64,000 nt of DNA from Bacteroidales bacterium (GTDB lineage Bacteria; Bacteroidota; Bacteroidia; Bacteroidales; UBA5342). Positions within the stretch are counted from its first letter, which is position 1; each line of letters opens with the position of its first letter. Under the pieces are notes generated by a model, which saw nothing but the letters and a program-made list of their open reading frames with translations, searched no databases and was not told the DNA's origin. The stretch spans positions 17,143 to 81,142 of the forward strand of contig JBFHER010000001.1 in the NCBI GenBank assembly GCA_041584055.1, written 5' to 3'. Positions 1-64,000 of the stretch are shown piece by piece. The translations under genes and the position numbers were made by a program.

Positions 1-917
1 TTGGTGCTTTCATAGGGGTGAATCTACTTTCTGCCCTGAAAGATCCTGCCACTGATTTTTCATTGTTTATTGTAGATAATCAGTCTTTAGCACTTGATTC
101 TTCATTGTTTGTTGCTGAATTACCAAATGGGAGATTTCAGATTTTGGCCTACGACCATCAGGAAGAAAAGCTTGTTAACATGTTAGGAAGTGAATACAAA
201 GGCATCTTTAAGCGTAGATTGTTTGGTCAGATTGGGGTACAACCGATATTAGGGCTGGCAAAACGTGAGTTTGTAGAAACGCTGGATGGCCGTCATATTG
301 TGGTGCAGAATGATACTGTCTCCGGAGGAGCTCCATCACAGTTTGGCTTTAATTCTGGTCGGGATACAACCGTTGTTTTTACCGAAATAGCCGATTTTCC
401 AATCACCAATGGCCACGTTTATGAATGTGATGGTTGGTTTGAATTCCCAACAAAGAATACCTATGAATATTTAAGAAATACGAAATTCCTAACCTTACTA
501 AATAAAGTTGGGCTTGCAAGTACTTTGAATCAACGGCTCACCTTTATGGATCCAACCGAGCGTTATACAATATTCGTACCTTCAGATGCTGCCTTAAATA
601 GTATTCAGGTGGATACGCTTTCGTTGGTGGAAATAAAAAAACTTGTGAGTTTTCACATTGTGAAAGGAGAGTTGATTTTTACAGATGGCCGATTGCCGCA
701 GAAGGCTTATCGTACACTTGATAATCAGTTTCTAAATCTTAATCCTCAGCCTGATAACCTGCTGATATTAGACAAGAATAATGATGTGTATTATGATAAG
801 TTAGTATTGTCCTCCAGGTCGAATTTAATGGGAATGTACCAGCAAAACCTTTCTGAAAAGTACTATTTATCAAATGCTGTGGTGCATCAAATCGATGCAG
901 TTATTCTGCCTTATTAG
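1..917 (+). CDS. Fasciclin (FAS1) domain protein, 5'-truncated by window edge
   Basis: The frame is open from base 3 with no stop before the GTG at 18, so the gene probably starts upstream of the window. FAS1 hallmarks: 'YTIFVPSDAALNS', 'LVSFHIVKGEL', 'NAVVHQIDAVILP'. Confidence 0.75.
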   Translation, partial: GAFIGVNLLSALKDPATDFSLFIVDNQSLALDSSLFVAELPNGRFQILAYDHQEEKLVNMLGSEYKGIFKRRLFGQIGVQPILGLAKREFVETLDGRHIVVQNDTVSGGAPSQFGFNSGRDTTVVFTEIADFPITNGHVYECDGWFEFPTKNTYEYLRNTKFLTLLNKVGLASTLNQRLTFMDPTERYTIFVPSDAALNSIQVDTLSLVEIKKLVSFHIVKGELIFTDGRLPQKAYRTLDNQFLNLNPQPDNLLILDKNNDVYYDKLVLSSRSNLMGMYQQNLSEKYYLSNAVVHQIDAVILPY

Positions 918-961
918 AGGATGTTACGCTTGCAAAATTGTAAAAAGATTAAATTAAAAAT

Positions 962-3900
962 ATGAAACATTTACTGTTGCTATTATGCATGGCAGCTTTT
1001 GCTACCCAGATGAATGCCCAAAACCATATTGTACGTGGTAAGGTAAGTGATGCATCGGGTGGGATTATTGGGGCTACCGTTGTTGAACTTGATGCCAACG
1101 AAAGGATTATAACTGGTACAATTACAAATATTGATGGTGATTATACAATACAGGTTTCCAATCCTGATGCAACCATTCAGTTTAGCTTTATTGGTTATAA
1201 AACCGTGATTGAACCTGTGAAGGGGAGGTCTACGATTGACATGACCATAGTGCCAAATGAAATCACCATGAAAGAATTTGTTGTTACTGCAGTTGCCAGT
1301 GCTCAGGCCATAACAGGTGTCAACACCAGAGATCAAACCGGCTCATCAACCCTTGTTAAAATGGAAGGAGTACAAAGTACAACAGTGTCAAATATTGGGG
1401 ATGCACTGCAAGGACAGGTGGCTGGTCTCGACATTGTTGGCGGAGGTAGCCCGGGGAGTGGCTCAAGCATCGTTATACGTGGTCTGGGGAGCTTGAGTGG
1501 AAGTAACCCGCTTGTTGTTGTTGATGGTATTATTCAGAGAGTTAGTACCAGTGATCTCGATTTTGCCTCGGCGGATGAAGAGGACATAGGTATGCTTGTG
1601 AGCATTGCTCCTGAAGACATTAAATCAGTGCGTGTATTGAAAGATGCTGCCGAAACGGCTGTGTATGGGACACAAGGTGCCAATGGTGTTTTGGAGATTG
1701 AAACAAATAAAGGTATGAGAGGGAAAACCGTGTTTGATGCCAGTTATAAAAAATCATTGTCCTTTGAACCTCCTCGGATCCCAATGTTAAACGGAGATGA
1801 GTATGTAATGCTTCAACAGGAAATGTATCACAATCGCTATGGTGTAATTGATTTAACTCCTGAAATCTCAAATGATGTCGATTATCTCGATTATTATAAT
1901 TATGCACAGAACACTGATTGGGTGGATGATATAACACGTCTCGGGCAGATTGATGACTTTGGGTTTAAGCTTTCAGGAGGTGGAGATAAAACATCTTATT
2001 ATGCCTCTGTGAACTATCAAAACAATATAGGAACTGTTAAAAATACAGCCAATAGACGTTTTACAACACGTGTTAACCTCGGTTATAAAATATCAAACAA
2101 GTTGAATCTGAATACAACCATCAGTTATGTGAATATGTATAAGGATGACAACTGGTCAAGCGAAGGAAATGTTCGCTCCATGGCATATCGAAAAGCACCC
2201 AACATGGCCATTTACGAACACACCCCGGATGGTGTTAAAACCAACGAATTTTTTACCCCGATTGAAAACTATCAGGGCAATGGAATCGAAAACTTTAATC
2301 CCAGCGCGGTGGTTGCTTTAAGTGACAATGATCAGCAAAATAACGATTTTCAGACCAACTTTACACTGAGGTATAACCCCAATGAGTGGCTGACAATGAG
2401 GCAAGTAATGTCCTTTCAGTTTCAGAATTCAAAGCGGCTCGAATTTTTGCCTTATACTGCCATTGGAGCTGTTTGGTTGGATTCCGAGAATAATTCATCC
2501 ATGGAACGCAATTCTACCGGGACATTGTTGAGCTCACAAACCTATCTGAACTTTACTGCTTTAAAAAACAACACGCATGTTTTGAGTGGAATGCTTATGT
2601 TCGAAACCACCCAAAACAAAGATGAGTATATTCAAACGGCGACGGGGAGTGGGCCAAGTACAGCAATTACTGATCCTGCTGCCAGTCCGATGCGTTCAAG
2701 CCTCACCTCCGGTTCATCTGTTGTGAACACGGTTGGATTCCTGGGCAATCTGCACTATAAATTATTAGATCGACATATTTTTCAGGTAAACATGAGAAGT
2801 GATGCAAGTTCGCGTTTTGGCACAAGTTCGCGATGGGGGTATTTCCCAAGTGTTTCTTATGCCTGGCGTTTTTCTGGAGAACCTTTTCTGGATAATTGGC
2901 GCTTTCTTGATGACAGTAAGTTGCGTGTAAGTTACGGTCTGTCAGGTAACTCTGATGTGAAAGCTTACGATCGCCATGGTCTGTATGGATCTACCGGAAA
3001 AGGTGGATATATGGATTTGCAAAGCGTAATCCCAACGCAAGCACAACTCCAAAGACTGCAATGGGAAACAAAAACAACGCTTAATGTGGGGATTGATGTT
3101 TCTTTTTTTGAATATAGATTGAACGTGATTGGGGAGTACTATGATAATATCACAGAAAATATTCTGTGGCCAAACTACAAACTCCCAAGTTCGGCTGGAT
3201 TTACAACCCTTAAACAGTTTAACGATGGAAAAATTCAAAATTCAGGATTTGAGTTTACTACTAATGTAACTGCAATCAAGCAGAAGAACCTTACAGTGAG
3301 TTTAAACTATAACATATTCTTCAATGAAAATAAATTCCTGAGTTTCCCATCTAACATTATTGATGAGCAAACGGATATAAGTAATGGCAAATATCCAGTT
3401 AAAGCAGAAATAGGAAAACCTGTTGGCTCTTTCTTCGGTTTCCGTTATGAAGGCGTCTATCCAACCACTGCCGATGCGGTTGCACACAATGCCGATGGTT
3501 CCGTAAAACTGGATCCATATGGAAAACCGATTCCAATGTTTTATGGCGGGCAAACTTCATATAGGTTTGAGGGTGGCGATGCCAAATATCAGGATGTAAA
3601 TTACGATGGGATCATTGATTTGAACGATGTTGTCTATCTAGGGGACTCAAATCCTGATTTTGCCGGAGGATTTGGCTTTAATGTTGGATACAAAGGTTTA
3701 CAATTGAATGCTCAATTCCTTTATCGATATGGCTACCAGATTGTTAACCAGGTGGCCTTGAATGCAGAAAGCATGTCAAATAAGGACAATCAAAGTATCG
3801 CAGTTCTAAATCGCTGGCGGGTTTCTGGTGATGATTATCCCAATATGATTCCGCGTGCTTATCAGGGGCATCCGGCTAATAACCTTGGCTCAGATCGCTA

Positions 3901-4156
3901 CGTTGAAGATGCAAGTTTCCTGCGTCTGAACAATGTATCTCTGAATTACACATTCCCGTCAAGCTTCGTTAAAGCTATGAATGTTAGAAGTATGCGCGTG
4001 GGAATTCAGGCAAGAAAGCTATTTACCTTTACAAATTACACTGGGCAGGATCCCGAAGTACAAATGAAGCGAGAGGATGCCCTGTGGTTTGGAAAAGATA
4101 CAGGAACCGTTCCTCCTCCAATCGTTACTGCACTCAACATCTCCGTGGGTTTCTAG
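962..4156 (+). CDS. SusC/RagA-family TonB-dependent outer-membrane transporter (pair 1)
   Basis: 1064 aa with a signal peptide. CarboxypepD_reg-like N-terminus ('VRGKVSDASGGIIGATVV..DGDYTI'). Plug motifs 'IVIRGLGSLSGSNPLVVVDGI' and 'VLKDAAETAVYGTQGANGVLEIET'. Long beta-barrel ending in an aromatic residue ('LNISVGF'). Confidence 0.95.
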   Translation: MKHLLLLLCMAAFATQMNAQNHIVRGKVSDASGGIIGATVVELDANERIITGTITNIDGDYTIQVSNPDATIQFSFIGYKTVIEPVKGRSTIDMTIVPNEITMKEFVVTAVASAQAITGVNTRDQTGSSTLVKMEGVQSTTVSNIGDALQGQVAGLDIVGGGSPGSGSSIVIRGLGSLSGSNPLVVVDGIIQRVSTSDLDFASADEEDIGMLVSIAPEDIKSVRVLKDAAETAVYGTQGANGVLEIETNKGMRGKTVFDASYKKSLSFEPPRIPMLNGDEYVMLQQEMYHNRYGVIDLTPEISNDVDYLDYYNYAQNTDWVDDITRLGQIDDFGFKLSGGGDKTSYYASVNYQNNIGTVKNTANRRFTTRVNLGYKISNKLNLNTTISYVNMYKDDNWSSEGNVRSMAYRKAPNMAIYEHTPDGVKTNEFFTPIENYQGNGIENFNPSAVVALSDNDQQNNDFQTNFTLRYNPNEWLTMRQVMSFQFQNSKRLEFLPYTAIGAVWLDSENNSSMERNSTGTLLSSQTYLNFTALKNNTHVLSGMLMFETTQNKDEYIQTATGSGPSTAITDPAASPMRSSLTSGSSVVNTVGFLGNLHYKLLDRHIFQVNMRSDASSRFGTSSRWGYFPSVSYAWRFSGEPFLDNWRFLDDSKLRVSYGLSGNSDVKAYDRHGLYGSTGKGGYMDLQSVIPTQAQLQRLQWETKTTLNVGIDVSFFEYRLNVIGEYYDNITENILWPNYKLPSSAGFTTLKQFNDGKIQNSGFEFTTNVTAIKQKNLTVSLNYNIFFNENKFLSFPSNIIDEQTDISNGKYPVKAEIGKPVGSFFGFRYEGVYPTTADAVAHNADGSVKLDPYGKPIPMFYGGQTSYRFEGGDAKYQDVNYDGIIDLNDVVYLGDSNPDFAGGFGFNVGYKGLQLNAQFLYRYGYQIVNQVALNAESMSNKDNQSIAVLNRWRVSGDDYPNMIPRAYQGHPANNLGSDRYVEDASFLRLNNVSLNYTFPSSFVKAMNVRSMRVGIQARKLFTFTNYTGQDPEVQMKREDALWFGKDTGTVPPPIVTALNISVGF

Positions 4157-4205
4157 TTTTGGAGTTTATATTTTTAAGAGATTATAATTATCAATCATAA
4201 CAATT

Positions 4206-5696
4206 ATGAAACAACAATTATCACGATACATAAGCATCAAAGCATCGATTTTAGTGATCCTCTTTGGCGTATCATTATCATCGTGTGAGGATTTTTTAGA
4301 TCAAAAACCGACGGATGGCTTAGTGCTTGAGGAATATTGGAAAAACAAAGAAGAAGTTCTTTCTACCCTCGGTGGTGCATACCAACTTTTTTCGGAGTTG
4401 GATTACCTGCTTTTCATTCATGGCGAGATACGGGGAGATATGTTGCAACCAAACGGTACCAGAACAGGTGCTTCGGAAAGGGCAGTGATGTCTGCAAATA
4501 TTGAAACAAATCAATGGTTTGCACGCTGGGATAATTTTTACAAAACAATTAATGTGTGCAATCATGTTATAGAATTAACCCCTGAGGTCGAGGACCCAAC
4601 ATTCACTGATTATCTCAAACAGCAGATGATATCTGAAGCTACCTTTTTACGAAGTCTTTGTTACTTTTATCTGGTCCGCGTCTGGAAAGATGTGCCTTTT
4701 GTAACGGAGCCAACCAAGACGGATGAAGGTGAGTTTTTTCCAGGTTTAACATCAGGTGAGGACATTCTTAAAAGTATAAAGGCGGATCTCATCGATATTC
4801 GTAATAAAATGCCTGATCATCCAAGCATAGAAAAATCAAAGTCGCGTGCCACTGCAGGTGCCGTAAATGCTTTATTGGCAGATATATCGTTGTGGAATTT
4901 TGAGTATGACGAGTGTATCAGCTACATCGATGCGGTTGAAAACAGTGGACAATACTTTTTATTGCCTGCAACCGAATGGTATCACAATTATAATCCTGGG
5001 TTCACCCTTGAGAATATTTTTGAAATCTTTTTTGATCAGCCAGCAGGACAGGGGAATAATTTCGCCGACAGAACATATTCATCCTCTGCAGCAGGAATCT
5101 ATTATTTCGCCAGTGATTATGCGCAGGAGATATTAAGTGTTGAAACAACAGAAGCAGGAGAATTAATCAGAGGGAATGGGTCATTATCAACGAACCATCA
5201 AATCTGGAAGTTTGCCGGAGCAATTGCCGATAAAAGCACCTTGCGCCCTTCAAACGCGAGTACCAGTGCTAATTTTATTGTGTATCGATTGGCAGATCTT
5301 TACCTCATGAAGGCAGAAGCATATTCTCAAAAGGAATCGCCGGATTTTCCCAGGGCACTGGAGTATCTGAATGCAGTGAGAGTACGCTCAAACATGCAAC
5401 CCTATGCCCAGTTTTCCAGGGCACAGGATTTTGAAGATGCCATTTTGTTGGAACGTGCAAAAGAATTAGCCTTCGAAGGTAAGCGTTGGTTCGACTTATT
5501 GCGGATGGGTAGAAGAAACGATTATGCCAGAAAAGAGAATCTTATCGAGATATTAATCCAGAATGTTCCTTCAACGCAGAAACTGGTGCTAAAATCGCGT
5601 TTGAGTGACCCAAATGGCTGGTATATGCCAATCCATAGCACCGAGATTGATAGAAATAAAAACTTGACGCAAAATCCATATTACGATGAAAATTAA
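4206..5696 (+). CDS. SusD/RagB-family nutrient-binding lipoprotein (pair 1)
   Basis: Lipobox and typical SusD start 'LSSCEDFLDQKP'. 'FLRSLCYFYLVRVWKDVPF'. C-terminal 'ERAKELAFEGKRWFDLLRMGR'. Lies immediately downstream of SusC. Confidence 0.93.
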   Translation: MKQQLSRYISIKASILVILFGVSLSSCEDFLDQKPTDGLVLEEYWKNKEEVLSTLGGAYQLFSELDYLLFIHGEIRGDMLQPNGTRTGASERAVMSANIETNQWFARWDNFYKTINVCNHVIELTPEVEDPTFTDYLKQQMISEATFLRSLCYFYLVRVWKDVPFVTEPTKTDEGEFFPGLTSGEDILKSIKADLIDIRNKMPDHPSIEKSKSRATAGAVNALLADISLWNFEYDECISYIDAVENSGQYFLLPATEWYHNYNPGFTLENIFEIFFDQPAGQGNNFADRTYSSSAAGIYYFASDYAQEILSVETTEAGELIRGNGSLSTNHQIWKFAGAIADKSTLRPSNASTSANFIVYRLADLYLMKAEAYSQKESPDFPRALEYLNAVRVRSNMQPYAQFSRAQDFEDAILLERAKELAFEGKRWFDLLRMGRRNDYARKENLIEILIQNVPSTQKLVLKSRLSDPNGWYMPIHSTEIDRNKNLTQNPYYDEN

Positions 5697-7266
5697 TAGA
5701 AATTATTTCAACAGGAAGTTGATATATGTCTTTTGGGTAGCGTTATTCGGCCTTGTGTCATGCAATAACGATGATGAAGCAGATGTTCTTTTTACAGGTG
5801 ATTCGTACCAAAATATCATGCAATACATTGAAGAAAATCAAGACTATAGTTCTTTTACTAAGATTGTGTATGCCGGAAAAATGGTGGATGCCTTAAGTGC
5901 TTATAATAGCAACGGAGGTGTAGGCTATACTTTGTTCTTACCAACGAACGAGGCGATCACAAAATTTATTAGCGAAAGTGATCGATATACATCTTTTGAA
6001 GCATTGCTGGCGGATACCGAATATGCTGCAGAGATTGTTCGTTATCACCTGGTGAACGGAAATACGCCTTCCAAAGACTTTCCAAATGGAGCACTTGAGA
6101 GTAAAACAATTTCAAATTATTTCTTAACAATAACCTTCAGAGAGGAAAATGGGGTAATATCCTTTGCAGTGAACGATGTTTCGAAGGTGTTAACGACCGA
6201 TATTGTTCTTGACAATGGTACAATCCATACAATCGATAAGATGCTGACACCAGTTGTTTTTACATCCTTTCAGTGGATTGAGCAAGGCAGCGATTTCAGT
6301 ATTTTTTCTGAATTATTAAAAAAATGTGGTTTGGAAGATACTTTAAATGCCTTTGAATTAGATGAATTAGGGCGTGAAATCTACTCAGAATATACCTTGA
6401 TGGCCGAATCAAATTCACTTTATGAAAGTAAAGGAATTTCATCATTCGACGATTTAATCCATGCCATTGATCCTGCAGCGACTGCGTCGCAGGATTTTAC
6501 AAGCTTATCGAATGCAATTAATAAATACGCGCGCTATCACATATTGGAAAAAAGTGTGTTCCTTGATGAGTTTGCCACTGAAGTGTACAATACTTATGGT
6601 GAGCTTCCGCTGTCAGTTGATCTGGATGATATTCTAAAAGTGAATACTGGCGTCATGGTATTTGATACAATCATTGGTGCCGGAGATACGGTCCTTGTAA
6701 ATTACTTGCAAATCAATACAGAAGAAAGCAACATTGTTACGCGAAGCGGTGCGATTCATCAATTAGATCAGCTTTTGTTTCCTTATCTGCCCGGCCGAAA
6801 AACGGTGACATATCAGTTTTACGAAGAGCCGGTGATTAATGGTTTAAAAGACATTGAAGGCAATCATACAATCAGCGATGATGACCTGGAATTTATCAGT
6901 TTAATTGGGATAAAGAATTTAACCTTTGTGAAATCACCCACAGAAATTACAGGGAACTCCAATAATGACTACATTGAACTATCAGGCGACGTGGATTTCA
7001 GTTTTGTTACACCAAAGATTTTGGCAGGACGGTATACTTTAAAAATCGTAATTCAACGCGGCTATTCATACCTGGCAAATGTACAGACGTATGTGGATGG
7101 AAAAAAGGTAGGCGTCGTGCTTGATCCAACAACGGATACCCGGGTATTTAGAACGTTTCCACTGGGGACCGTGGAATTCTCCGATTTTAGCACTCATACA
7201 GTTAAAATAAGGACCATTATTCCAGGTCGTGTACTTTTAGACCGCATCATATTTGAACCAATTTAA
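5686..7266 (+). CDS. Lipoprotein with two FAS1 (fasciclin) domains and a C-terminal beta-sandwich (CBM-like) region
   Basis: Lipobox 'LVSCNNDD'. FAS1 repeat 1: 'YTLFLPTNEAITKF','RYHLVNG','GTIHTIDKMLTP'. Repeat 2: 'RYHILEKS','GAIHQLDQLLFP'. The start overlaps the susD-like stop by 11 nt. Confidence 0.85.
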   Translation: MKINRNYFNRKLIYVFWVALFGLVSCNNDDEADVLFTGDSYQNIMQYIEENQDYSSFTKIVYAGKMVDALSAYNSNGGVGYTLFLPTNEAITKFISESDRYTSFEALLADTEYAAEIVRYHLVNGNTPSKDFPNGALESKTISNYFLTITFREENGVISFAVNDVSKVLTTDIVLDNGTIHTIDKMLTPVVFTSFQWIEQGSDFSIFSELLKKCGLEDTLNAFELDELGREIYSEYTLMAESNSLYESKGISSFDDLIHAIDPAATASQDFTSLSNAINKYARYHILEKSVFLDEFATEVYNTYGELPLSVDLDDILKVNTGVMVFDTIIGAGDTVLVNYLQINTEESNIVTRSGAIHQLDQLLFPYLPGRKTVTYQFYEEPVINGLKDIEGNHTISDDDLEFISLIGIKNLTFVKSPTEITGNSNNDYIELSGDVDFSFVTPKILAGRYTLKIVIQRGYSYLANVQTYVDGKKVGVVLDPTTDTRVFRTFPLGTVEFSDFSTHTVKIRTIIPGRVLLDRIIFEPI

Positions 7267-7302: not shown

Positions 7303-8856
7303 ATGATTAATAAAATAAGTTTATTTCTACTGTTGTCCATCCTGTTTTTTTCGTGTCAGGAAGAAATTGATGAATACTATTATGAGGGGACAGAAGCTTC
7401 TGTTGATACTGATATTTTGACCTTGTTGAAAGAGAAGCCGGAATATTCTGAGTTTGTGTCTCTTTTGGAACAGTTTAGGGTTGACACTTTGCTTGAGCAG
7501 GGAAAGATCTTCACATTCTTTGTGCCTAACAACAGTGCCATGGAAACCATGGAGAACGGCACATTGGGGGATAAAGAGTTAGTTGAATACCTGATCACAG
7601 AATCCTATGTAAATCTGAATCAAATTGTTGGTCAGAATAAAATACAAACACAGGGGGGAAAGTTTGCGCTTATTCAGCAAGTAGGAGGGGCTAGCTATAC
7701 ATTTGATGGAATTGCCATCGTAAATGGAGGACCTTTAACCAATAACGGACGTTACTATGAAATTGCAAAGGTTGCGGAACCAAAGCCAAGTTTGTATCAA
7801 TACATTGCGGCAACAAACGATTTCTATCGTTCTTACCTGGATTCCAGAGATTCCATCTACCTTGACAAAGAGTTGAGTACGCCCATTGGTTATACGAATG
7901 ATGGTTTAACCATTTACGATACGGTGCTGACAACAGTTAATTTGTTTGAGGAATTCTATTTCCCTGTTTCGGAAGAGTTCAGAGACTACAAAGCAACAAT
8001 GCTTTTATTTACTCAGGAGCAATACGACAATGCTCTTGAAATTGTGGCTAACGCGTTAAACATCCCTCTGGGAAACATCCCCGGCATTTGGCAAAATGAG
8101 GTGTTAATGCCTTACCTGCTGGAACAGAGCGTGTTTAGAAATTCACTTCCCTACTCTGCATTTTCAAAGGGGCGGGCTAAAAACATTCTTGGGGATAGTG
8201 TGGATGTAAATCCGCAGAATATTACGTTTGAATCTTTTGAATGTAGCAATGGGAGAGCATATAACTTTATTGACTTTCAAGTGCCTGAATTTCTGTATAA
8301 AGTAAACGATTCCATCGCGATGTCATCACTTTTATACAATAAAGGTTCCGACCTTTGGGGATGGAATGATGATGTGACCGTAACCGGCCAGACATTTAAT
8401 CCGCTTCGTGTTGCAAATGCCAATTCTATCTTTGGTAGTACCTTACTGATTGATATGGGTAAAAGCTTTAACGGAAATTTCTCATTTGCATATACCCACA
8501 AGAATATATTCCCGGCAACGTACAAGTTAACGATACGCGCCAATGTTAGTAAAACAGGTATTTATAATATTTATGTTAATGGCAAACACTATCCTGTGGA
8601 TATTAATGATGGCAAAGGTCCGCAGTACGATTTTGATTTCTTTAACCTTAGGTCCGGGGTTGTTAGCCCTGTGACAAACAAGTATTACCCTTTCGAAAAC
8701 AACTTCTGTAAGTTTGATATTTTAGTAGATAACATAACAGAATTTGGGGATGTTGAGGTTAAACTTGATTATGTTAAGCCCAGTCAACGAAACAGTAATA
8801 ATTGCGGTCTCAATATCGATTTTATTTCTCTGGAATATTTAAATAACGGTAATTAA
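7303..8856 (+). CDS. FAS1 (fasciclin) domain lipoprotein with C-terminal beta-sandwich region
   Basis: Lipobox 'FFSCQEE'. FAS1 motif 'FTFFVPNNSAMETM'. The C-terminal third ('TYKLTIRANVSKTGIYNIYVNGK...NIDFISLEYL') resembles the tail of the preceding FAS1 protein. Confidence 0.8.
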   Translation: MINKISLFLLLSILFFSCQEEIDEYYYEGTEASVDTDILTLLKEKPEYSEFVSLLEQFRVDTLLEQGKIFTFFVPNNSAMETMENGTLGDKELVEYLITESYVNLNQIVGQNKIQTQGGKFALIQQVGGASYTFDGIAIVNGGPLTNNGRYYEIAKVAEPKPSLYQYIAATNDFYRSYLDSRDSIYLDKELSTPIGYTNDGLTIYDTVLTTVNLFEEFYFPVSEEFRDYKATMLLFTQEQYDNALEIVANALNIPLGNIPGIWQNEVLMPYLLEQSVFRNSLPYSAFSKGRAKNILGDSVDVNPQNITFESFECSNGRAYNFIDFQVPEFLYKVNDSIAMSSLLYNKGSDLWGWNDDVTVTGQTFNPLRVANANSIFGSTLLIDMGKSFNGNFSFAYTHKNIFPATYKLTIRANVSKTGIYNIYVNGKHYPVDINDGKGPQYDFDFFNLRSGVVSPVTNKYYPFENNFCKFDILVDNITEFGDVEVKLDYVKPSQRNSNNCGLNIDFISLEYLNNGN

Positions 8857-12041: not shown

Positions 12042-12088
12042 GCCGGAATAGGCATTATTATTTTGTATAAATACAATAATTTGAAAAA

Positions 12089-49017: not shown

Positions 49018-49039
49018 TATTAAGGCTATTAATAAAGAT

Positions 49040-55984: not shown

Positions 55985-58237
55985 ATGAAAAACAATCGAT
56001 TATTAAGAATCGTGGTTGTAACATTGGTTTTAGCTTCTGCCATGAGTTGTAAGCCATCATTGGAAAAAGATTTTAAAAATCCTCCATGGGAGTTCAAACC
56101 CATGCCTTTTTGGCACATCAATGGTGAACTCACCGGGGATGGCATCCGGCAGCAGATGAAAGATGCAAAGGCAGCTGGTTTTTCGGGGGTCACGCTATTG
56201 CCCCTTGCCGAAAAGAGTCCAACACGTCCTGGTACTTCGCCCAAATTTCTATCGGATGATTATTTTGAGCGTTATCAGGATATGATAGATATTGCCGAAG
56301 AGCTGGATATGGAGATTATTCTTTATGATGACAATGATTTCCCCAGTGGAATGGCTGGTGGTAAAATGGAAGAACTGTATCCGGAACACACCATGAAACG
56401 ACTGGATAAGTTGGAGTACTCCGTAAAAGGGCCACTATTGTTTTCAGAGCCTGTGAATGGCGTTCAGTTGATGTCTGCTGTTGCGATAAATCAAAAAACA
56501 AATGAACGAATAGATATCAGTAGCTTTGAGAATAACGGGAAACTAGAATGGCAAGTCCCTGAGGGCGTATGGAATATTCTTATGTTCCCTTTGGTGAAAG
56601 ATAGTTTCCATAAAAAATACCTCTGCATGGATTTTATGGACACCGTGGCTGTTCGTCACATGATTAATGAGACCTATGAAAAGTATAAAAAACGCTTTGC
56701 TCAGTATTTCGGGAATACCATTAAGACAACTTTTTTTGATGATGTTGGCTTTTGGCGTCATCCACGCAGCTGGACAGCAAAATTCAATGCAAAGTTTGAA
56801 GAGATAAATGGTTATGATCCAAAACCATACTATCCGGCATTGTGGTACGACATTGGCTCGGAAACAGAAGCTGTCAGAAATGCCTTTTTTAATACCAGAG
56901 CAGAGTTGCTGGCAGAGGGATTTCCAAATTTGGTAGGGAAATGGAACGAAGCCAACGGACTGAACAGCACTGGACATCCTCCCGGAAATTATAACGTTTC
57001 TCCCATCGATATGAATGGCGATATTTTTAAGTTTTACAGACACACGCAAATTCCATTAACCGATGCCATTATTGCTTATCAATACGGACAAAATGGGCAT
57101 AAACTGATTGGCTCAGCTGCTGACTATTATGACCGTCCTTTGGTAGCTACGGAGATTTATGGCGCATATAAAGAGGCATCGTTTGATTCCTTAATGTTAT
57201 ACCGTTCAATGATGGATTTATTTGCCCGGGGAGTTAATATGGTAATACCGCACGGCATGTGGTACAATCCTAAATTGGTTTATATCTCCCCTTTGGTGTC
57301 ACCTTACAGCGAGAAAATAGGAGCGGCTTTACCTGCTTATTCCGACTATGTAGGACGTGCAAGTATGTTGCTGCGTGGCGGAAGGCGGGTTAGTGAGATT
57401 GCAGTCCTGTATCCGTTTGAAGGCTTGGCCGGTTGGTTCCGTTTCGATAATCCTGATAAGGTTCGACAAGGGTATTACGTGGCGCCCGAAACCGACTACC
57501 AAATCATCGGTGGCTGGCTTACAAATAATCTTCGACGTGACTTTACCTTTGTGCATCCTGAGCTCTTTTTGAATGAAAAGTATAGCATCGAAAATGATGT
57601 TGTCGTACTCAATAATGAAGAGAACTACCAGGTATATAAAGTAATGATGCTCACTGGAAGCAAAGTCATCTCCTTAAAAACTCTTCAAAAGCTAAAGAAC
57701 TATTACGACCAGGGTGGGAAAATAATAGCAAGCACCTTATTGCCATTTAAATCAGCAGAAAGAGGACTTGATGAGGAAGTGGTGAACCTGGTAAAAGACA
57801 TTTTTGGTATCAATCCTACACGGCAAGATACATTGGTGAAAAATGTGTATAGCTCTAATAATAAGGGAGGAAGCGCGATATTTATGCCGAAACCTGATTC
57901 TGATAACCTGACTCTGGCATTTGAACAATTATCGCTTTCTGCGGATGTAGCTTTCGAAGAAAATCCTCAACTCTCCACCGACTTTGGTAAGTTTAACTAT
58001 ATACACAAAATTAAAGATGGGAAGCATATTTATTTCTTTACCAATTCAAGTGATGAATTGATTCAAACTGAAGTAGTCCTTCGAGGTCAACTAAGATTAG
58101 AGCACTGGGATCCACATAATGGCAAAATATCTAAGCTTGAAACGATGACTTTGGTTGATGGGGATGAAATGATTCATACCAGATGTAAACTCAGGTTGGC
58201 GCCAGTAAGTTCTGCCTTTTGGATAGCTAAGGAATAA
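55985..58237 (+). CDS. Short GH106-like ('NPP..FWxxNG') glycoside hydrolase lipoprotein
   Basis: Lipobox 'AMSCKPS'. 'FKNPPWEFKPMPFWHINGELT..MKDAKAAGFSGVTLLPL' is homologous to the N-termini of 29904 and 37179. It lacks their 'NLWPNRLIGDE' tail. Confidence 0.55.
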   Translation: MKNNRLLRIVVVTLVLASAMSCKPSLEKDFKNPPWEFKPMPFWHINGELTGDGIRQQMKDAKAAGFSGVTLLPLAEKSPTRPGTSPKFLSDDYFERYQDMIDIAEELDMEIILYDDNDFPSGMAGGKMEELYPEHTMKRLDKLEYSVKGPLLFSEPVNGVQLMSAVAINQKTNERIDISSFENNGKLEWQVPEGVWNILMFPLVKDSFHKKYLCMDFMDTVAVRHMINETYEKYKKRFAQYFGNTIKTTFFDDVGFWRHPRSWTAKFNAKFEEINGYDPKPYYPALWYDIGSETEAVRNAFFNTRAELLAEGFPNLVGKWNEANGLNSTGHPPGNYNVSPIDMNGDIFKFYRHTQIPLTDAIIAYQYGQNGHKLIGSAADYYDRPLVATEIYGAYKEASFDSLMLYRSMMDLFARGVNMVIPHGMWYNPKLVYISPLVSPYSEKIGAALPAYSDYVGRASMLLRGGRRVSEIAVLYPFEGLAGWFRFDNPDKVRQGYYVAPETDYQIIGGWLTNNLRRDFTFVHPELFLNEKYSIENDVVVLNNEENYQVYKVMMLTGSKVISLKTLQKLKNYYDQGGKIIASTLLPFKSAERGLDEEVVNLVKDIFGINPTRQDTLVKNVYSSNNKGGSAIFMPKPDSDNLTLAFEQLSLSADVAFEENPQLSTDFGKFNYIHKIKDGKHIYFFTNSSDELIQTEVVLRGQLRLEHWDPHNGKISKLETMTLVDGDEMIHTRCKLRLAPVSSAFWIAKE

Positions 58238-58614: not shown

Positions 58615-58770
58615 ATGAAAAAAACGGGAGTTACCATAGCATTTGTCTTCTTTTTAAACCTCTTGTTGTTTTCGCAACGTCCTGCGATGCATTTTAAACA
58701 TATAACGAGCGATCAAGGTCTTCTGTCAAATTACATTACCTCAATTGTTGAGGATAAACTTGGTTTCTGA
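58615..58770 (+). pseudogene. 51-codon remnant of the N-terminus of a hybrid two-component system / Reg_prop sensor
   Basis: ATG at 58615, TGA at 58768-58770. 'MKKTGVTIAFVFFLNLLLFSQ' is a signal/anchor. 'FKHITSDQGLLSNYITSIVEDKLGF' matches the first two-component-regulator propeller repeat (consensus F.HLT..DGLS.N.V..I.QD..GF.W). The frame stops where the propeller should continue. Not in the ORF track because it is too short. Confidence 0.55.
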
Positions 58771-58777
58771 ATTCGCC

Positions 58778-58785: not shown

Positions 58786-58866
58786 AAATGGATGGTTTAA
58801 ATTGATTGTAATTGTCGTAAAAGATGAAAGCAAAGCCTTTAACTTTTACAAGAAAAAAATAAATAA

Positions 58867-61173
58867 ATGAGTAATTTTAAGTCTTTAATTCCGGGCATAT
58901 GGCTATTTCTTTTGTTATTAAGTGCTTGTAACGAAAAAAGTAAAGTCCCTGAAAACAACGTACAGTGGCCTGAATTTATGGCCCAACACGATCTGGTATG
59001 GGAAGAAATTCCTTTGCAATGGAACGAAGGCGCTTTTACAGGAAACGGGCAGGTGGGAATGATGATTTATGCCACAATGAAAGATAATCGCCTTGATTTT
59101 CATATGGGGCGTCAGGATGTGACCGATCATCGCAAAGCTCCTGATAAGAAAACATCCATGGGCGTGAAAGGAGCTGATTTAATGGATCACTCCCGGCATG
59201 ACATTGGCAGAATGTATCTTCGGCCGGCAGGAACAATACTATCCATGAAGGTGCGTCAACACCTTTGGAATGCAGAAGTAAGAGGAACCATCGTAACCGA
59301 TCTCGGTGAATTAACCTTCCGGGCGTTTACACCTTATGATCGCATGTTAAATGTAGTTGAGGTGCAATCAACAGAAAAAAAGGATGGGAAATCACTTGCT
59401 TACAGCTGGGAATGGAAGGCCGGAAACCCAATTTCGCCGCGGGCGCTGGCAATGCCCGACAGATATCCTGACATTGCATTGAACCCCAGGCCAGTAGTGT
59501 TAAAAAAAGGTGATATGAATGTTTGTGTGCAGGCCTTAAACGCAGGCGGTGATTATGCAACAGTCTGGAAAGAAAATAAAAATTCTGATACAGCTTCCAC
59601 CATGTACCTTTCTATAGCCAATGAAATTCCAGCATCCGGGGAATCGGAAAAAGTGGCCACGAAGACGGTAAACGATGCAGCTGCTGTCTCCATTTCTGAC
59701 ATTGAAAAAAAACATAGGAGTTGGTGGCACAGTTATTTTCAAAAATCATTTTTATCAATGCCTGATGGAAGAATGGAGTCCTTCTACTGGATACAGGTGT
59801 ATAAAATGGGCGTTTGTTCAAGAGCCGACGGACCTGCCCTGGATTTAAATGGTCCCTTTTTAAAAGTAACATCCTGGCCAGGTCTGTGGTGGAACCTGAA
59901 TGTGCAATTAACATACTGGCCTTTTAATACAAGCAACCACTTAGATATTGCAGAAAATTATATAAATCTAATTGATGATTACGGAGCACAGATGCTTAAA
60001 AATCGTTTTAGTGGATCTTCTTTGGGTGATTATGCCTGGGCATTGCAAAACTACTGGTTGTATTACCGTTACAAAGGCGATTGGGAAGCGATTCAGAGAA
60101 AATGGGTTCCCAAAGCCATGGAGGTTGCTAAAATTTACGAAGGAAAGCAGGTTAAAAACGATAGGGGTCAGATTGAACTGATTGCCATGGGCTCCCCTGA
60201 ATACCATGGATTTAAATCATTTAAAAATACGAATTACAACCTGGCACTTTTGCGTTGGTTGTTAAACGCTTTAATTGAGTCAAACGAAAAGGCCGGGACA
60301 AATGCCGGTGACCTTGTAAAGTGGAAACAAACGCTCGAAGATTTAATCGCCTATCCGGTAGATGAAAATGGCTTGATGATTGGTAGCGAACAGCCTGTTG
60401 ATATGTCGCATCGACACTATTCGCACCTGCTGGCCTTGTACCCCTTATTTCAGCTTAATCCTGACGCGCCGGACGATCGCGCGCTTGTTGATAAATCGGT
60501 GGTGCACTGGCATAAAATAGAAGGGGGGAAAGGTTTGGCAGGCTATTCATACACGGGAGCGGCTTCATTGTATAATGCCCTGGGCCGTGGAAACGATGCA
60601 TACCCGATCTTGCACCATTTTCTAACAAAACAAATTGGCAAAGGCAGTGCCGTGTTGTTACCCAATACTTTTTATATGGAAGGTTGGGGGAAAAATCCCG
60701 TCATTGAAACGCCACTAAGCGCCGCTTCATCTATCATGGAATTCTTTTTACAAAGCTGGGGTAATAAAATCAGAGTATTTCCTGCTGTTCCCGATGTATG
60801 GGAAGAGGCATCCTTCGATAAGTTGCGGGCACAAGGTGGTTTTTTGGTCAGTGCAGCACGTAGCAATCGTCAAACCAAATGGGTAGCCATCAAAAGCGAG
60901 GCTGGCGAACCCTGTGTTCTTAAAGTGCCGGGTTGGAAGTCTGCAATTCAAATTGGAGGAAGTGAAAAAGTAACCGTGAAAAAAATAGCGGAGGGCGAGT
61001 TTGAAATTGCATTGAATAAAGGACAGGAAATTGTTCTTGCATCGTCAGCAGACATTCAACCGCAGTTAAAACCTGTGGCACACAAACCTACGGAAATAAA
61101 TCTCTATGGCGTAAAAAAAGGAATGAATTATAAGGAGATCATGGAATATGACGTTCAAGAGTATGTTTATTAA
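58867..61173 (+). CDS. GH95-like glycoside hydrolase lipoprotein (alpha-L-fucosidase/alpha-L-galactosidase family)
   Basis: Lipobox 'LLSACNE'. N-terminus 'LVWEEIPLQWNEGAFTGNGQVGMMIY' resembles GH95 'W.EALP.GNG.lG.mv.G'. 'WPGLWWNLNVQLTYWPFN' resembles the GH95 'NINLQMNYW' catalytic Asn-x-Asn segment. 768 aa is typical. Confidence 0.6.
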   Translation: MSNFKSLIPGIWLFLLLLSACNEKSKVPENNVQWPEFMAQHDLVWEEIPLQWNEGAFTGNGQVGMMIYATMKDNRLDFHMGRQDVTDHRKAPDKKTSMGVKGADLMDHSRHDIGRMYLRPAGTILSMKVRQHLWNAEVRGTIVTDLGELTFRAFTPYDRMLNVVEVQSTEKKDGKSLAYSWEWKAGNPISPRALAMPDRYPDIALNPRPVVLKKGDMNVCVQALNAGGDYATVWKENKNSDTASTMYLSIANEIPASGESEKVATKTVNDAAAVSISDIEKKHRSWWHSYFQKSFLSMPDGRMESFYWIQVYKMGVCSRADGPALDLNGPFLKVTSWPGLWWNLNVQLTYWPFNTSNHLDIAENYINLIDDYGAQMLKNRFSGSSLGDYAWALQNYWLYYRYKGDWEAIQRKWVPKAMEVAKIYEGKQVKNDRGQIELIAMGSPEYHGFKSFKNTNYNLALLRWLLNALIESNEKAGTNAGDLVKWKQTLEDLIAYPVDENGLMIGSEQPVDMSHRHYSHLLALYPLFQLNPDAPDDRALVDKSVVHWHKIEGGKGLAGYSYTGAASLYNALGRGNDAYPILHHFLTKQIGKGSAVLLPNTFYMEGWGKNPVIETPLSAASSIMEFFLQSWGNKIRVFPAVPDVWEEASFDKLRAQGGFLVSAARSNRQTKWVAIKSEAGEPCVLKVPGWKSAIQIGGSEKVTVKKIAEGEFEIALNKGQEIVLASSADIQPQLKPVAHKPTEINLYGVKKGMNYKEIMEYDVQEYVY

Positions 61174-61584: not shown

Positions 61585-61597
61585 ATATTAAACAATT

Positions 61598-64000
61598 ATG
61601 AGATACGCCTTATTTATCACCATTTCAGTGGCATTCATTTTTTCCGTTTCTACTCACGCACAGACGAATCAAACACATAAGTTTCAGGATACATCGCTGG
61701 ACTTTGAAACCAGGGCAGCAGATCTTGTCATGCAAATGACCCTGGATGAAAAGATTGCAGAGTTAGGAGATCACGCACCTGGAATTCCACGTTTAGGTGT
61801 GCCGGAATACAACTGGTGGAATGAATGCCTGCATGGTGTGGCACGGTCTGGAGAAGCTACTATGTTTCCTCAGGCCATTGGAATGGCTGCGACCTTTGAT
61901 ACCAACATGATGAAGAAAGTGGCCGATGTGATTAGCGATGAAGCACGTGCAAAACATCACGATGCCGTTCGTAAAGGGAATTTCAATAGATACTATGGTT
62001 TGACTTTTTGGTCGCCAAATATCAATATATTCAGAGATCCGCGTTGGGGGCGTGGTCACGAAACATATGGCGAAGACCCTTACCTTACCGGACAAATGGG
62101 CATTCAGTTTGTTAAAGGCTTACAGGGAGAAGATCCCAAATACATGAAACTGGTGGCGACGGCCAAGCACTTTGCCGTGCACAATGGTCCGGAACCGGAT
62201 AGGCACACCTTTAATGTGACACCCAATACGCGCGATTTGTGGGAAACATATTTGCCAGCATTTGAAGATCTGATTGTGGATGCAAAAGCATATTCGATCA
62301 TGGGGGCTTACAATCGGGTAGATGGAGAATCAGCAAGCGCAAGTTGGTTATTGCTTGAAGATATCTTGCGAAATAAATGGAATTTCGAAGGTTATGTAGT
62401 GTCCGATTGTGGTGCGATAAGAGATATTCATGCTTTTCATAAAATTGTGAATACACCCGAAGAAGCTGCAGCAATTGGTGTTCGCAAAGGCTGTGATTTA
62501 AACTGTGGGTCTGTCTACCAAAAGTATTTGAAGAATGCCGTTGAATTGGGCCTGATCGATGAAGGTGAAATCGATTTGTCGGTCTATCGTCTGGTACTGG
62601 CAAAAATGAAATTAGGAATGTTCGATCCGGCAGAGATGGTACCTTACGCAAATATTCCCATGGCGGTTAATGACAGTAAACCACATGATGAAATGGCTCT
62701 GGCCATGGCACAAAAGTCGATGACTTTGTTGAAGAACGATGGAATCCTTCCCTTGAAAAAGAATAAGCTAAAAAGAATCGCTGTGGTTGGACCCAATGCC
62801 AATAGTACAAATGCGTTAAGAGGCAATTACTTTGGAACAGCATCCAACCCTGTTACCGTGATCGATGGTATCAGAAAAGCGGTTGGTAGTGATGTTGCGA
62901 TCACGTATAACGATGGCGTGCCCATGGTGATTTACGACATTTCTGAAAAAGATTTTCCGATGATTGATGCAAAGTACATAACTACTGTTGATGAGAAAGG
63001 GAAAACGGTAGAAGGTTTAACCGGACATTATTTCAATAACATGAACCTGGAAGGCGAAGCCGATTTTATAAGAATAGATCCTCAAGTAAAATTCAAATGG
63101 AGCAAGACAGAATCACCAACATCTACTGAAGTTGCTCAGGGGATTATTACTGCTGATAAAGCGATTCAGAATGATCACTTTTCCATCAGTTGGACCGGAA
63201 AATTACAGGCCCCAATGTCAGGGACATATAAACTGGGAGTTGCTTCAGATGATGGATGTCGCCTTTGGATTGATGGTAAAAAAATTGCCGATGGCTGGCA
63301 TAATCATGGTTTGACGCCCTTTCTGGGAGAGGTACAACTGGAAAAGGGACAATTCTATGCCATTAAAGTTGATTATTACGATAATACTGCTGATGCAGAG
63401 GTGAAACTTATATGGGAAACTCCAGCACATCTTGCGAAAAATACAGTTGATCCTACCGTACTGTCTAAAGAAACCTTAGCAGAGGTTAAAAAGGCAGATG
63501 TGGCCATATTTGTAGGTGGTTTAGACGCCACATGGGAAGGCGAAGAAATGAGAGGACGTGACAATATTGATGGCTTTTATCGTGGTGATCGTACTAAGAT
63601 AGAACTTCCCCAAACGCAAATGAAGGCTCTAAAAGCAATGAAGGAAACCGGAACGCCAGTGGTTTTCGTTCTAATGTCTGGCAGTGCCATGGCGTTTGAT
63701 GGTCTTGAAGAAGATTTAAATGCAATTCTAATGGCCTGGTATCCGGGTCAAAGAGGCGGTGATGCCGTGGCTGATGTGTTGTTTGGTGATTACAACCCCG
63801 CAGGTCGTTTGCCCATTACATTTTATCCATCAACCGATGAATTAGCAGATTTTAAGGACTATAACATGCGTGCCGGAAAAGGTTTTACTTATCGGTATTA
63901 TACTGGTGATGCGCTGTACCCTTTTGGACATGGACTGAGTTATACAACATTTGAATACTCAAATCTGAAAATTGATAAAACATCAGTTCACAGCGATGAT
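61598..64000 (+). CDS. GH3 glycoside hydrolase (beta-glucosidase/beta-xylosidase type) with inserted PA14 domain, 3'-truncated by window edge
   Basis: Absent from the ORF track because no stop is reached. My own translation from the ATG at 61598 gives 'MRYALFITISVAFIFSVSTHAQ..MTLDEKIAELGDHAPGIPRLGVPEYNWWNECLHGVAR'. 'FEGYVVSDCGAI' is the nucleophile Asp context. PA14: 'GLTGHYFNNMNLEG...FSISWTGKLQAPMSGTYKLGVASDDGCRLWIDGK'. The frame stays open for 801 codons to base 64000. Confidence 0.88.
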   Translation, partial: MRYALFITISVAFIFSVSTHAQTNQTHKFQDTSLDFETRAADLVMQMTLDEKIAELGDHAPGIPRLGVPEYNWWNECLHGVARSGEATMFPQAIGMAATFDTNMMKKVADVISDEARAKHHDAVRKGNFNRYYGLTFWSPNINIFRDPRWGRGHETYGEDPYLTGQMGIQFVKGLQGEDPKYMKLVATAKHFAVHNGPEPDRHTFNVTPNTRDLWETYLPAFEDLIVDAKAYSIMGAYNRVDGESASASWLLLEDILRNKWNFEGYVVSDCGAIRDIHAFHKIVNTPEEAAAIGVRKGCDLNCGSVYQKYLKNAVELGLIDEGEIDLSVYRLVLAKMKLGMFDPAEMVPYANIPMAVNDSKPHDEMALAMAQKSMTLLKNDGILPLKKNKLKRIAVVGPNANSTNALRGNYFGTASNPVTVIDGIRKAVGSDVAITYNDGVPMVIYDISEKDFPMIDAKYITTVDEKGKTVEGLTGHYFNNMNLEGEADFIRIDPQVKFKWSKTESPTSTEVAQGIITADKAIQNDHFSISWTGKLQAPMSGTYKLGVASDDGCRLWIDGKKIADGWHNHGLTPFLGEVQLEKGQFYAIKVDYYDNTADAEVKLIWETPAHLAKNTVDPTVLSKETLAEVKKADVAIFVGGLDATWEGEEMRGRDNIDGFYRGDRTKIELPQTQMKALKAMKETGTPVVFVLMSGSAMAFDGLEEDLNAILMAWYPGQRGGDAVADVLFGDYNPAGRLPITFYPSTDELADFKDYNMRAGKGFTYRYYTGDALYPFGHGLSYTTFEYSNLKIDKTSVHSDD

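Follow-up and report, generated by a model that had tools for sequence, protein, structure and literature searches.

A probable ulvan-type polysaccharide utilisation locus with a PL37-GH105 gene pair in a marine, non-flavobacterial Bacteroidia bacterium

Introduction

Ulvan is a sulfated cell-wall sugar polymer of sea lettuce. The present study concerns a 64-kb stretch of DNA from a Bacteroidales bacterium (the whole stretch is hereafter called the window) and the polysaccharide utilisation locus (PUL) that it carries, in which a gene of polysaccharide lyase family 37 (PL37) lies beside a gene of glycoside hydrolase family 105 (GH105). Among the closest known systems is PUL H of Formosa agariphila KMM 3901 (Reisky et al, 2019; Bäumgen et al, 2021, PMC8511951). 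Its P29_PDnc, classified by CAZy in PL37 and first published as a broad-spectrum ulvan lyase, was inactive on polymeric ulvan in the study of Bäumgen et al (2021), where it dehydrated the non-reducing-end glucuronic or iduronic acid (GlcA/IdoA) of GlcA/IdoA-Rha3S (Rha3S, rhamnose-3-sulfate) to the 4,5-unsaturated product Δ-Rha3S, the substrate of GH105 (PMC8511951). The residues D248, E254, E255, D269, D290, R300, K303 and Y306 were mutated in that work and activity was found to need D248, R300 and K303, the numbering being inconsistent inside the article (R230/R300, and D242/R294/K297 in one legend) (PMC8511951). Among the other ulvan enzymes of this species, P18_S1_7 (PDB 6HHM) is an endo-xylose-2-sulfatase and P32_S1_8 an exo-xylose-2-sulfatase of the S1_8 subfamily (PMC9096561), while the GH39 endo-rhamnosidase acts on xylose-rich, lyase-resistant fragments (PMC8360166). 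The ulvan loci of Alteromonas and Pseudoalteromonas (PL24/25/40; Uly1040, PMC12915356) have in common with the window a substrate logic of sulfatases, GH105/88 and rhamnosidases. They are centred on lyases, whereas PL24, PL25 and PL40 are absent from the window. To our knowledge, the gammaproteobacterial ulvan loci lack SusC/D pairs and the type IX secretion system (T9SS).

Judging from its genes, the window probably represents an ulvan-type PUL of a marine, non-flavobacterial Bacteroidia bacterium, and this reading is held here with good confidence. The host is Bacteroidales/Marinilabiliales-like, Saccharicrinis being the closest named relative for one flanking gene (GH3-PA14). When compared with PUL H enzyme by enzyme, and not by gene order, the window has the same SusC/D uptake, a P29_PDnc-like PL37 enzyme next to a GH105-dependent step, a GH39 predicted to be of the endo-rhamnosidase type, putative sulfatases of the P18_S1_7 and S1_8 types, a GH3 β-xylosidase, GH78 enzymes and T9SS export of the outermost enzyme. 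It differs in that no PL28/PL40 endolyase is found in the visible region, which comprises the window and 10 kb upstream of it (Logan contig L001), 74 kb in total; in that it has neither a close S1_25 (Rha3S) sulfatase nor a P36-like fusion of GH78 and sulfatase; in that its GH2 is not an orthologue of P17 and its host is not a flavobacterium; and in the presence of three GH106 enzymes, a GH59, a GH5-like enzyme, a protein of nucleoside-hydrolase (NH) fold and fasciclin-domain lipoproteins. An original prediction made from the letters of the window had read rhamnose, sulfate, uronate and xylose/galactose as the signature of green-algal ulvan or rhamnan sulfate, and the matches to PL37, GH105/4CE7, 6HHM and NF042992 agree with an ulvan-type sulfated rhamnose/uronate/xylose glycan; it had further judged that the substrate was not obvious from known PUL architectures, a view that does not hold, the gene pool being that of known and putative ulvan PULs.

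Results

Genes were called from a listing of open reading frames (ORFs) and Pfam scans, and further compared with NCBIfam, with PDB sequences and by AlphaFold2 (AF2) modelling and Foldseek. The local Pfam scan left two ORFs without a match, at 18763-20694 (643 aa) and 44886-45761 (291 aa). The former had gone unnamed in the original prediction, which described the locus as lyase-less; it proves to be a CAZy PL37 protein with Ulvan_lyase_N and Ulvan_lyase_C domains, so that a canonical PL-family match does occur among the ORFs taken as unknown. An identical protein (P0001) carries precomputed matches to PF25840 and PF25841 (E <= 1e-5), and a homologue search with the 643-aa protein returned 2801 relatives, those with a named source coming for the most part from marine Bacteroidota, Nonlabens ulvanivorans and Hyunsoonleella ulvae among them; among the matches listed, both domains are precomputed on all relatives. 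The ORF had no match in the local Pfam, NCBIfam and PDB sequence searches (PDB E < 1); for Pfam, the reason is presumably that both Ulvan_lyase models are missing from the local copy. As this case of PF25840/PF25841 illustrates, a "no family" result from a local Pfam-A library is not reliable for recently added models. All eight residues mutated in P29_PDnc are present in the window protein as the same residue at the same number; seven of them are invariant in the family and the eighth, D269, is conserved in 195 of 196 members, and the pattern D-x5-EE-x13-D-x20-D-x9-R-x2-K-x2-Y is matched unambiguously. The protein is thus predicted from its sequence to be an orthologue of P29_PDnc, with the function of an ulvan-oligosaccharide dehydratase.

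The AF2 model of the PL37 protein (pLDDT 73.7) places helices at 36-380 and strands at 400-640, i.e. an α-helical N-domain followed by a β-sandwich C-domain. Its top 45 Foldseek matches are polysaccharide lyases and a dermatan-sulfate epimerase, with E-values reaching 6e-12 and TM scores near 0.5, the lyases being of the glycosaminoglycan, hyaluronate, chondroitin, alginate and heparan-sulfate types, which belong to (α/α)-toroid plus β-sandwich families; the model accordingly predicts a lyase-type fold of this kind. The possibility that this ORF is a PL40 was rejected, as it does not match the PL40 structure 9VTK, whereas the genuine PL40 of a related locus (L002:12371-14878) matches Uly1040/9VTK at E 6e-182.

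The identity of this gene bears directly on GH105, which the original prediction had seen as lacking a source of unsaturated uronate. The PL37 gene is the adjoining ORF, 185 bp upstream of the GH105 gene, and P29_PDnc makes Δ-Rha3S (PMC8511951); the structure that GH105 matches best, 4CE7, is an "unsaturated 3S-rhamnoglycuronyl hydrolase" of ulvan. The paradox of a GH105 without a lyase finds its answer in the adjacent PL37, the predicted orthologue of a known dehydratase making Δ-Rha3S. This gene accounts for most of the apparent lack of a lyase, and the central puzzle of the locus is already explained by published biochemistry.

An endolyase of the known ulvan families is a separate matter. 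No window ORF matched PF22826 (PL28) or PF15892 (BNR_4), the window gave no match to 9VTK, and a tblastn search with seven PL28/PL40/BNR_4 lyases of related loci against the window and the 10 kb upstream returned similarity to T9SS tails only. Given the silence of Pfam and the restriction of the tblastn matches to the tails, PL24/25/28/40 are considered truly absent from the window and the 10 kb upstream; on this point the original prediction stands.

A scan of GTDB representative genomes for PL37 gave 76 loci with ±10 kb flanks, the genome of the window not being among them. All ORFs of these loci were compared by BLAST with the window proteins, homologues or likely orthologues being counted where identity reached 50% and a PL37 gene lay no more than 10 kb away, and lyases were counted on the 59 loci that span 15 kb or more. 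Likely orthologues were found near PL37 in other marine Bacteroidota for 22 of the 24 enzyme genes checked, often with a PL28, PL40 or BNR_4-type ulvan lyase alongside; the genes with such homologues are those for GH2, GH105, AraC, the isomerase, GH78a/b/c, GH106a/b/c, GH59, the seven sulfatases, GH39, GH5 and the NH-fold protein. Conversely, the genes that flank PL37 in these loci and have no match in the window are endo-ulvan lyases, namely PL28, BNR_4-type and PL40, and both the PL28 (PF22826) and the BNR_4-type propeller neighbours carry an ulvan-lyase β-trefoil (PF24208) and a T9SS tail. A PL28, PL40 or BNR_4-type lyase lies within 10 kb of PL37 in 28 of the 59 loci and is lacking in the other 31, so an endolyase unlinked to PL37 is common.

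The nearest PL37 relatives are encoded by Bacteroidales metagenome-assembled genomes (MAGs), L002 (Co_bin_835) at 79% and L008 (UBA5342) at 70% identity. Both resemble the window in the adjacency of GH2 and PL37, with an AraC gene on the minus strand following in L002, but they differ in what comes next: the order is GH2-PL37-lyase in these two loci (PL40 in L002, a BNR_4-type T9SS lyase in L008) and GH2-PL37-GH105 in the window. The arrangement of GH105 after PL37 is shared with the short MAG contig L051. Within L002, PL37 occurs twice in the segment 523-14878, the paralogues having 63% and 79% identity with the protein of the window. A broader likeness is found with putative ulvan PULs of marine Flavobacteriaceae (Algibacter, Lutibacter, Seonamhaeicola, Cellulophaga and Hyunsoonleella; L003-L030, L068, L076), which have in common with the window a module of PL37, AraC on the minus strand and GH78, followed by GH59, GH106, the isomerase or another GH78, with proteins 50-84% identical to those of the window. 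Most of these loci have a T9SS PL28 or BNR_4-type lyase with β-trefoil directly upstream of PL37, where the window has GH2, with GH105 downstream. Near-identical synteny with a characterised PUL, which the original prediction had named as evidence against its proposal, was not found among the loci compared; the synteny seen is at module level, with putative ulvan PULs.

The sulfatases and the GH39 point in the same direction as PL37 and GH105. The seven S1 sulfatases foreseen by the original prediction are all recovered as PF00884 proteins (E 1e-37 to 1e-58), each with the formylglycine motif C-x-[PA]-x-R followed by xxxxTG (7/7). Sulfatase d, which matches 6HHM over its full length, is likely an orthologue of P18_S1_7 to judge from this alignment, and sulfatase c has orthologues of 61-70% identity in 15 PL37 loci. 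The nearest structures to sulfatase a are 2QZU and the 4-O-endosulfatases 6J66 and 6S21. Sulfatases a, b, d, e and f (the last at about 50%) each have one or two matches of at least 50% identity near PL37. The GH39 scores 777.6 bits over the whole 471 positions of the NF042992 equivalog "alpha-1,4-L-rhamnosidase", under the cut-off of 850. It was listed in the original prediction as a T9SS-exported "GH39-like" enzyme; the match to this model suggests that it is of the ulvan endo-α-1,4-L-rhamnosidase type, a known non-lyase cleaver of the main chain, and not a generic GH39.

The remaining inventory agrees with the original prediction, every class that it had listed being recovered by Pfam with E-values far beyond chance: two SusC/D pairs (962-5696 and 8892-13963), six rhamnosidases (three GH78-type and three GH106-type, one GH106 being divergent), and GH105, GH2, GH59, GH95-like, GH5-like, GH3-PA14 and a T9SS-exported GH39-like enzyme (Table 1). 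The SusC/SusD pairs are interleaved with three fasciclin-domain proteins, of which the lipoprotein at 5686-7266 may be a surface glycan-binding protein, as inferred from its position after SusD. In the 10 kb upstream, L001 holds a hybrid two-component sensor gene on the minus strand, a GH3, a 1237-aa T9SS-secreted protein and the first part of the first fasciclin gene. Against NF041579, the equivalog model of the flavobacterial β-xylosidase, the GH3 reaches 1332.5 bits and so narrowly misses the cut-off of 1350. It has homologues of at least 50% identity near PL37 in two loci; a metagenome scan gave only 70% relatives.

Several of the other glycosidases are well represented near PL37. GH78b, which ends in an F5/8-type-C-like (NedA-like galactose-binding) domain, has orthologues of 62-77% identity in 14 PL37 loci, and GH106c has orthologues of 63-64% near PL37 in Arenibacter (L033, L034) and a 50% homologue in L026; for GH78a and GH106a, one or two matches of at least 50% each were found. 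GH2 orthologues of 64-73% identity lie near PL37 in nine loci. Those of the GH5-like enzyme (59-62%) adjoin a β-xylosidase, the NH-fold protein and a BNR_4 lyase in L006, L080 and L081. For GH59, orthologues of 75-84% occur in six PL37 loci, some directly adjacent; no role for GH59 in ulvan breakdown is described in the ulvan literature examined. The hosts of these GH59 orthologues are Lutibacter, Polaribacter, Algibacter, Seonamhaeicola and Draconibacterium, and the Ig domain at the N-terminus of the enzyme is typical of GH78 rhamnosidases.

Orthologues of the AraC regulator (50-54%) directly follow PL37 in 16 loci. The sugar isomerase, whose start position was taken from the gene call of L079, is unusually well conserved, with orthologues of 75-82% in six PL37 loci from Jiulongibacter (L028) to several Flavobacteriaceae; it shows weak likeness to L-arabinose isomerase and to the sulfoquinovose isomerase SftI. 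The 291-aa protein had no Pfam, NCBIfam or PDB sequence match. It contains an invariant Asp cluster (D43/D48/D50/D51), and its relatives number 637, many of them forming one domain of a large multidomain protein; orthologues of 65-75% are present in the ulvan-type loci L030, L063, L080 and L081, homologues lie near PL37 in two loci, and TARA contigs carry GH5 and 291-aa homologues beside a β-xylosidase and a BNR_4 lyase. It was considered as a small PL28/PL7-like lyase and rejected, the modelled fold being nucleoside-hydrolase-like α/β and not that of a lyase. It is proposed as a conserved component of ulvan-type loci and a candidate new carbohydrate-active family. The 1237-aa protein (L001:3600-7313), located between the β-xylosidase and the first fasciclin gene, contains lamin-tail domains and nothing else that is recognisable as a domain; none of the 76 PL37 loci encodes a homologue, and beyond its T9SS tail it has no PDB or NCBIfam match. 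A PL40-like lyase was discarded as its identity, there being no similarity to PL40 or to a 1292-aa PL40-like T9SS protein of Lutibacter; it may serve in binding at the cell surface or be an enzyme that has escaped recognition.

The original prediction described a single co-directional locus. The direction is indeed uniform, all window genes lying on the plus strand except that of the AraC regulator; the singleness is borne out only in part, three relics being found at module junctions. The first, an uninterrupted stretch of 128 codons in the 444-bp gap between sulfatase a and GH106b, is left with no upstream coding part before it, and its sequence identifies it as a truncated GH106 pseudogene. 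The second, in the 630-bp gap that follows GH106c, is an ORF of 51 aa, which resembles a signal peptide with a first propeller repeat and may be the truncated remnant of a hybrid two-component sensor. The third, located between the GH95-like and GH3-PA14 genes, is a T9SS sorting domain with no passenger domain before it, probably all that is left of a deleted secreted-protein gene; it is 27-36% identical to ulvan-lyase tails, no higher than to other T9SS tails. Because of these three gene relics, the locus is regarded as a rearranged mosaic assembled with deletions. It comprises a first module of uptake genes predicted to be controlled by the hybrid two-component sensor together with GH5, GH2, PL37 and GH105, a second of AraC-associated rhamnosidase and sulfatase genes, and a tail of uncertain affiliation. 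The GH95-like enzyme lacks a homologue throughout the 76 PL37 loci, neither it nor GH3-PA14 has one of at least 40% identity near PL37, and these two genes, past the last two scars, probably form a neighbouring unit. The closest database relative of GH3-PA14 is 86% identical (Saccharicrinis sp.), with no identical entry.

Table 1. Predicted genes and gene relics of the window (positions in the 64-kb stretch; homologue counts as defined in the text)
Feature	Position	Strand	Evidence
Fasciclin-domain protein, 3' part of 773 aa	1..917	+	PF02469 E 7e-13; full gene L001:7635-9956, start upstream of window
SusC-like TonB-dependent transporter 1	962..4156	+	Plug, CarboxypepD_reg domains
SusD-like protein 1	4206..5696	+	PF07980 E 1e-34, PF14322; lipobox LSSC
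Fasciclin-domain lipoprotein	5686..7266	+	PF02469 E 4e-26, two stretches; lipobox LVSC
Fasciclin-domain lipoprotein	7303..8856	+	PF02469 E 1e-9; lipobox FFSC
SusC-like TonB-dependent transporter 2	8892..12041	+	Plug domain E 3e-17
SusD-like protein 2, divergent	12089..13963	+	PF14322, PF07980, E about 1e-7
GH5-like glycosidase	14226..15605	+	PF00150, PF18564; homologue near PL37 in 1 locus
GH2, β-galactosidase/β-glucuronidase type, C-terminal CBM6/35-like domain	15703..18759	+	GH2 domains; best PDB 3GM8, 566 bits
PL37-family protein, 643 aa, twin-arginine translocation (TAT) signal peptide	18763..20694	+	PF25840 Ulvan_lyase_N, PF25841 Ulvan_lyase_C
GH105 unsaturated rhamnoglycuronyl hydrolase	20879..21991	+	PF07470 E 6e-85; best PDB 4CE7, 215 bits; homologues near PL37 in 8 loci
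AraC-family regulator, divergent from rhamnosidase module	22111..22989	-	AraC_binding, HTH_18
AraA/FucI-like sugar isomerase	23388..24800	+	Weak matches to L-arabinose isomerase and sulfoquinovose isomerase models
GH78a, short-form α-L-rhamnosidase type	24872..26605	+	PF17389, PF17390
GH78b α-L-rhamnosidase, full-length	26632..29880	+	PF17389 E 1e-54 and other GH78 domains
GH106a α-L-rhamnosidase	29904..32771	+	PF17132 E 2e-171; 74% partial orthologue in L012
GH78c-type α-L-rhamnosidase	32931..35264	+	PF17389 E 2e-25; 68-73% orthologues in 4 loci
S1 sulfatase a	35311..36735	+	PF00884 E 3e-56; CTPAR
Relic, C-terminal jelly-roll of lost GH106	36784..37170	+	blastx 33-36% to GH106 C-termini, E 9e-18; NF045579 E 1.3e-11
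GH106b α-L-rhamnosidase	37179..40688	+	PF17132 E 4e-183; 52-69% orthologues in 8 PL37 loci
GH59-family glycosidase, N-terminal Rha78A-like Ig domain	40706..43012	+	PF02057 E 3e-111
S1 sulfatase b	43086..44579	+	PF00884 E 1e-58; CTPHR
NH-fold secreted protein, 291 aa	44886..45761	+	AF2 pLDDT 90.9; Foldseek nucleoside hydrolases, TM about 0.5
S1_8-type sulfatase c	45813..47561	+	Best PDB 9BB9 "S1_8A sulfatase", 272 bits
S1_7 sulfatase d	47581..49017	+	PDB 6HHM, 667 bits, E 5e-199, full length
GH39, endo-α-1,4-L-rhamnosidase type, LamG-like, T9SS	49007..51403	+	NF042992 777.6 bits; PF18962 C-terminal sorting domain; homologues near PL37 in 2 loci
S1 sulfatase e, S1_7-like	51451..52836	+	6HHM 259 bits; 6HR5 (P36_S1_25) 126 bits
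S1 sulfatase f	52843..54492	+	PF00884 E 1e-40; CQPTR
S1 sulfatase g	54530..55960	+	PF00884 E 6e-37; 60-61% orthologues in 3 PL37 loci
GH106c, divergent GH106-like	55985..58237	+	PF17132 E 2e-37
Putative relic, N-terminus of hybrid two-component sensor	58615..58770	+	51-aa ORF, signal-like start, partial Reg_prop, Pfam E 0.2
GH95-like glycosidase	58867..61173	+	PF22124, PF21307
Orphan T9SS C-terminal sorting domain, 87 aa	61321..61584	+	PF18962 E 3e-15, TIGR04183 E 2e-15
GH3-PA14, β-xylosidase/glucosidase type, cut by window end	61598..64000	+	NF041776 xylosidase_Xyl3A, 848 bits

Discussion

The gene content of the window suggests a route for ulvan utilisation, all steps of which are proposed by homology to characterised enzymes of Formosa agariphila and Nonlabens. 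The T9SS-secreted GH39 would cut xylose-rich stretches of ulvan outside the cell. Since no β-eliminating endolyase is encoded in the locus, most of the depolymerisation would depend on a lyase located elsewhere in the genome or on oligosaccharides from neighbours. The fasciclin lipoproteins and SusD would bind the oligosaccharides, including Δ-terminated ones made by an endolyase of the host or of a neighbour, and the two SusC/D pairs would import them. In the periplasm, the S1_7, the S1_8 and the five other sulfatases would remove sulfate, while GH78/GH106 and the GH3 β-xylosidases would remove terminal rhamnose and xylose, respectively, from the non-reducing end. The TAT-exported PL37 would dehydrate the saturated GlcA/IdoA at the non-reducing end to a 4,5-unsaturated uronate, which GH105 would release as 5-dehydro-4-deoxy-glucuronate; Δ-ends produced by a lyase could go to GH105 directly. 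Control of expression may fall to the hybrid two-component sensor encoded upstream and to the AraC regulator inside the locus.

Several observations weigh against the assignment to ulvan. There is no endo-ulvan lyase within the visible 74 kb. The seven rhamnosidases, the GH59 and the β-galactosidase-like GH2 exceed the needs of the canonical ulvan repeat. The GH2 was tried and rejected as an orthologue of the β-glucuronidase P17_GH2, with 148 bits to the latter (6HPD) against 566 to 3GM8, and the window contains no close orthologue of the rhamnose-3-sulfatase P36_S1_25, the best score being 126 bits to 6HR5. The PL37 assignment itself rests on precomputed Pfam matches and residue mapping, the local Pfam and NCBIfam scans having missed the domains, and the biochemical role of PL37, lyase or dehydratase, is disputed in the literature. 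The surplus enzymes, the lack of an S1_25-type sulfatase and a GH2 unlike P17_GH2 lead us to suggest that the glycan used in nature may be ulvan-like but more complex.

It could be argued that the pathway is independent of lyases altogether, with no endolyase anywhere in the genome, the secreted GH39, perhaps with the 1237-aa protein, depolymerising ulvan, and PL37 and GH105 taking all uronates. The absence of PL24/25/28/40 from the window and the 10 kb upstream, the GH105 gene that fills the slot after PL37 held by an endolyase in L002 and L008, the T9SS export signal of GH39 and the expanded set of exo-enzymes would all fit such a scheme. We nevertheless regard it as rather unlikely, given that 74 kb are visible and 31 of 59 PL37 loci have no lyase within 10 kb, that the GH39 of F. 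agariphila works on xylose-rich, lyase-resistant fragments and not on bulk ulvan (PMC8360166), and that P29_PDnc is inactive on the polymer (PMC8511951). A related proposition is that the lineage lost, or never had, ulvan endolyases and uses a hydrolase-plus-dehydratase route, or that it is an obligate scavenger of the lyase products of its neighbours. We see only a small chance that this is the case; if it were true, the orphan T9SS domain at 61321-61584 would be the scar of a lost secreted enzyme.

Another sulfated rhamnose-rich glycan, such as a Monostroma-type rhamnan sulfate, a glucuronoxylorhamnogalactan sulfate or a microalgal or bacterial exopolysaccharide, would account for the seven predicted rhamnosidases, including three GH106, for GH59, the β-galactosidase-like GH2 and the GH95-like protein, and for the lack of both an S1_25 orthologue in the window and an endolyase in the visible 74 kb. 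Such a substrate appears quite improbable, because the specific best matches are to ulvan enzymes (4CE7, 6HHM, NF042992 and PL37), the same GH59, GH106 and GH78 orthologues stand beside bona fide PL28/PL40 lyases in many genomes, and the GH95-like and GH3-PA14 genes lie past a relic junction and are unlinked to PL37 elsewhere. As for plant pectin (rhamnogalacturonan I or II, RG-I/RG-II) or arabinogalactan-protein (AGP), the RG-II and AGP loci of Bacteroides thetaiotaomicron also combine GH78, GH106, GH105, GH2 and GH95, and weak NCBIfam matches to the BT4145 rhamnosidase model were obtained, but a Bacteroides-type PUL for these glycans is effectively refuted by the seven intact sulfatases and the marine, ulvan-specific matches, the window having no PL1/9/11 or GH28 genes, the scores to Bacteroides models being far under their cut-offs, the close relatives being all marine and the genes co-localising with ulvan lyases.

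Under the preferred reading of an ulvan-type PUL, the locus extends the gene pool of such PULs from the Flavobacteriia into a Bacteroidales/Marinilabiliales-like lineage, and shows PL37 and GH105 forming a module by themselves, with no endolyase next to them. The ulvan of green-tide Ulva blooms constitutes a large carbon pool and a candidate feedstock. The conserved uncharacterised parts of ulvan PULs found here, namely the GH59 with a Rha78A-like Ig domain, the NH-fold protein, the AraA-like isomerase, the GH5-like enzyme, the GH106 paralogues and the sulfatases without a structural relative, are offered for enzyme discovery. Should the whole genome prove to be devoid of endolyases, this bacterium would offer a natural system in which to study the use of ulvan without lyases or by scavenging.

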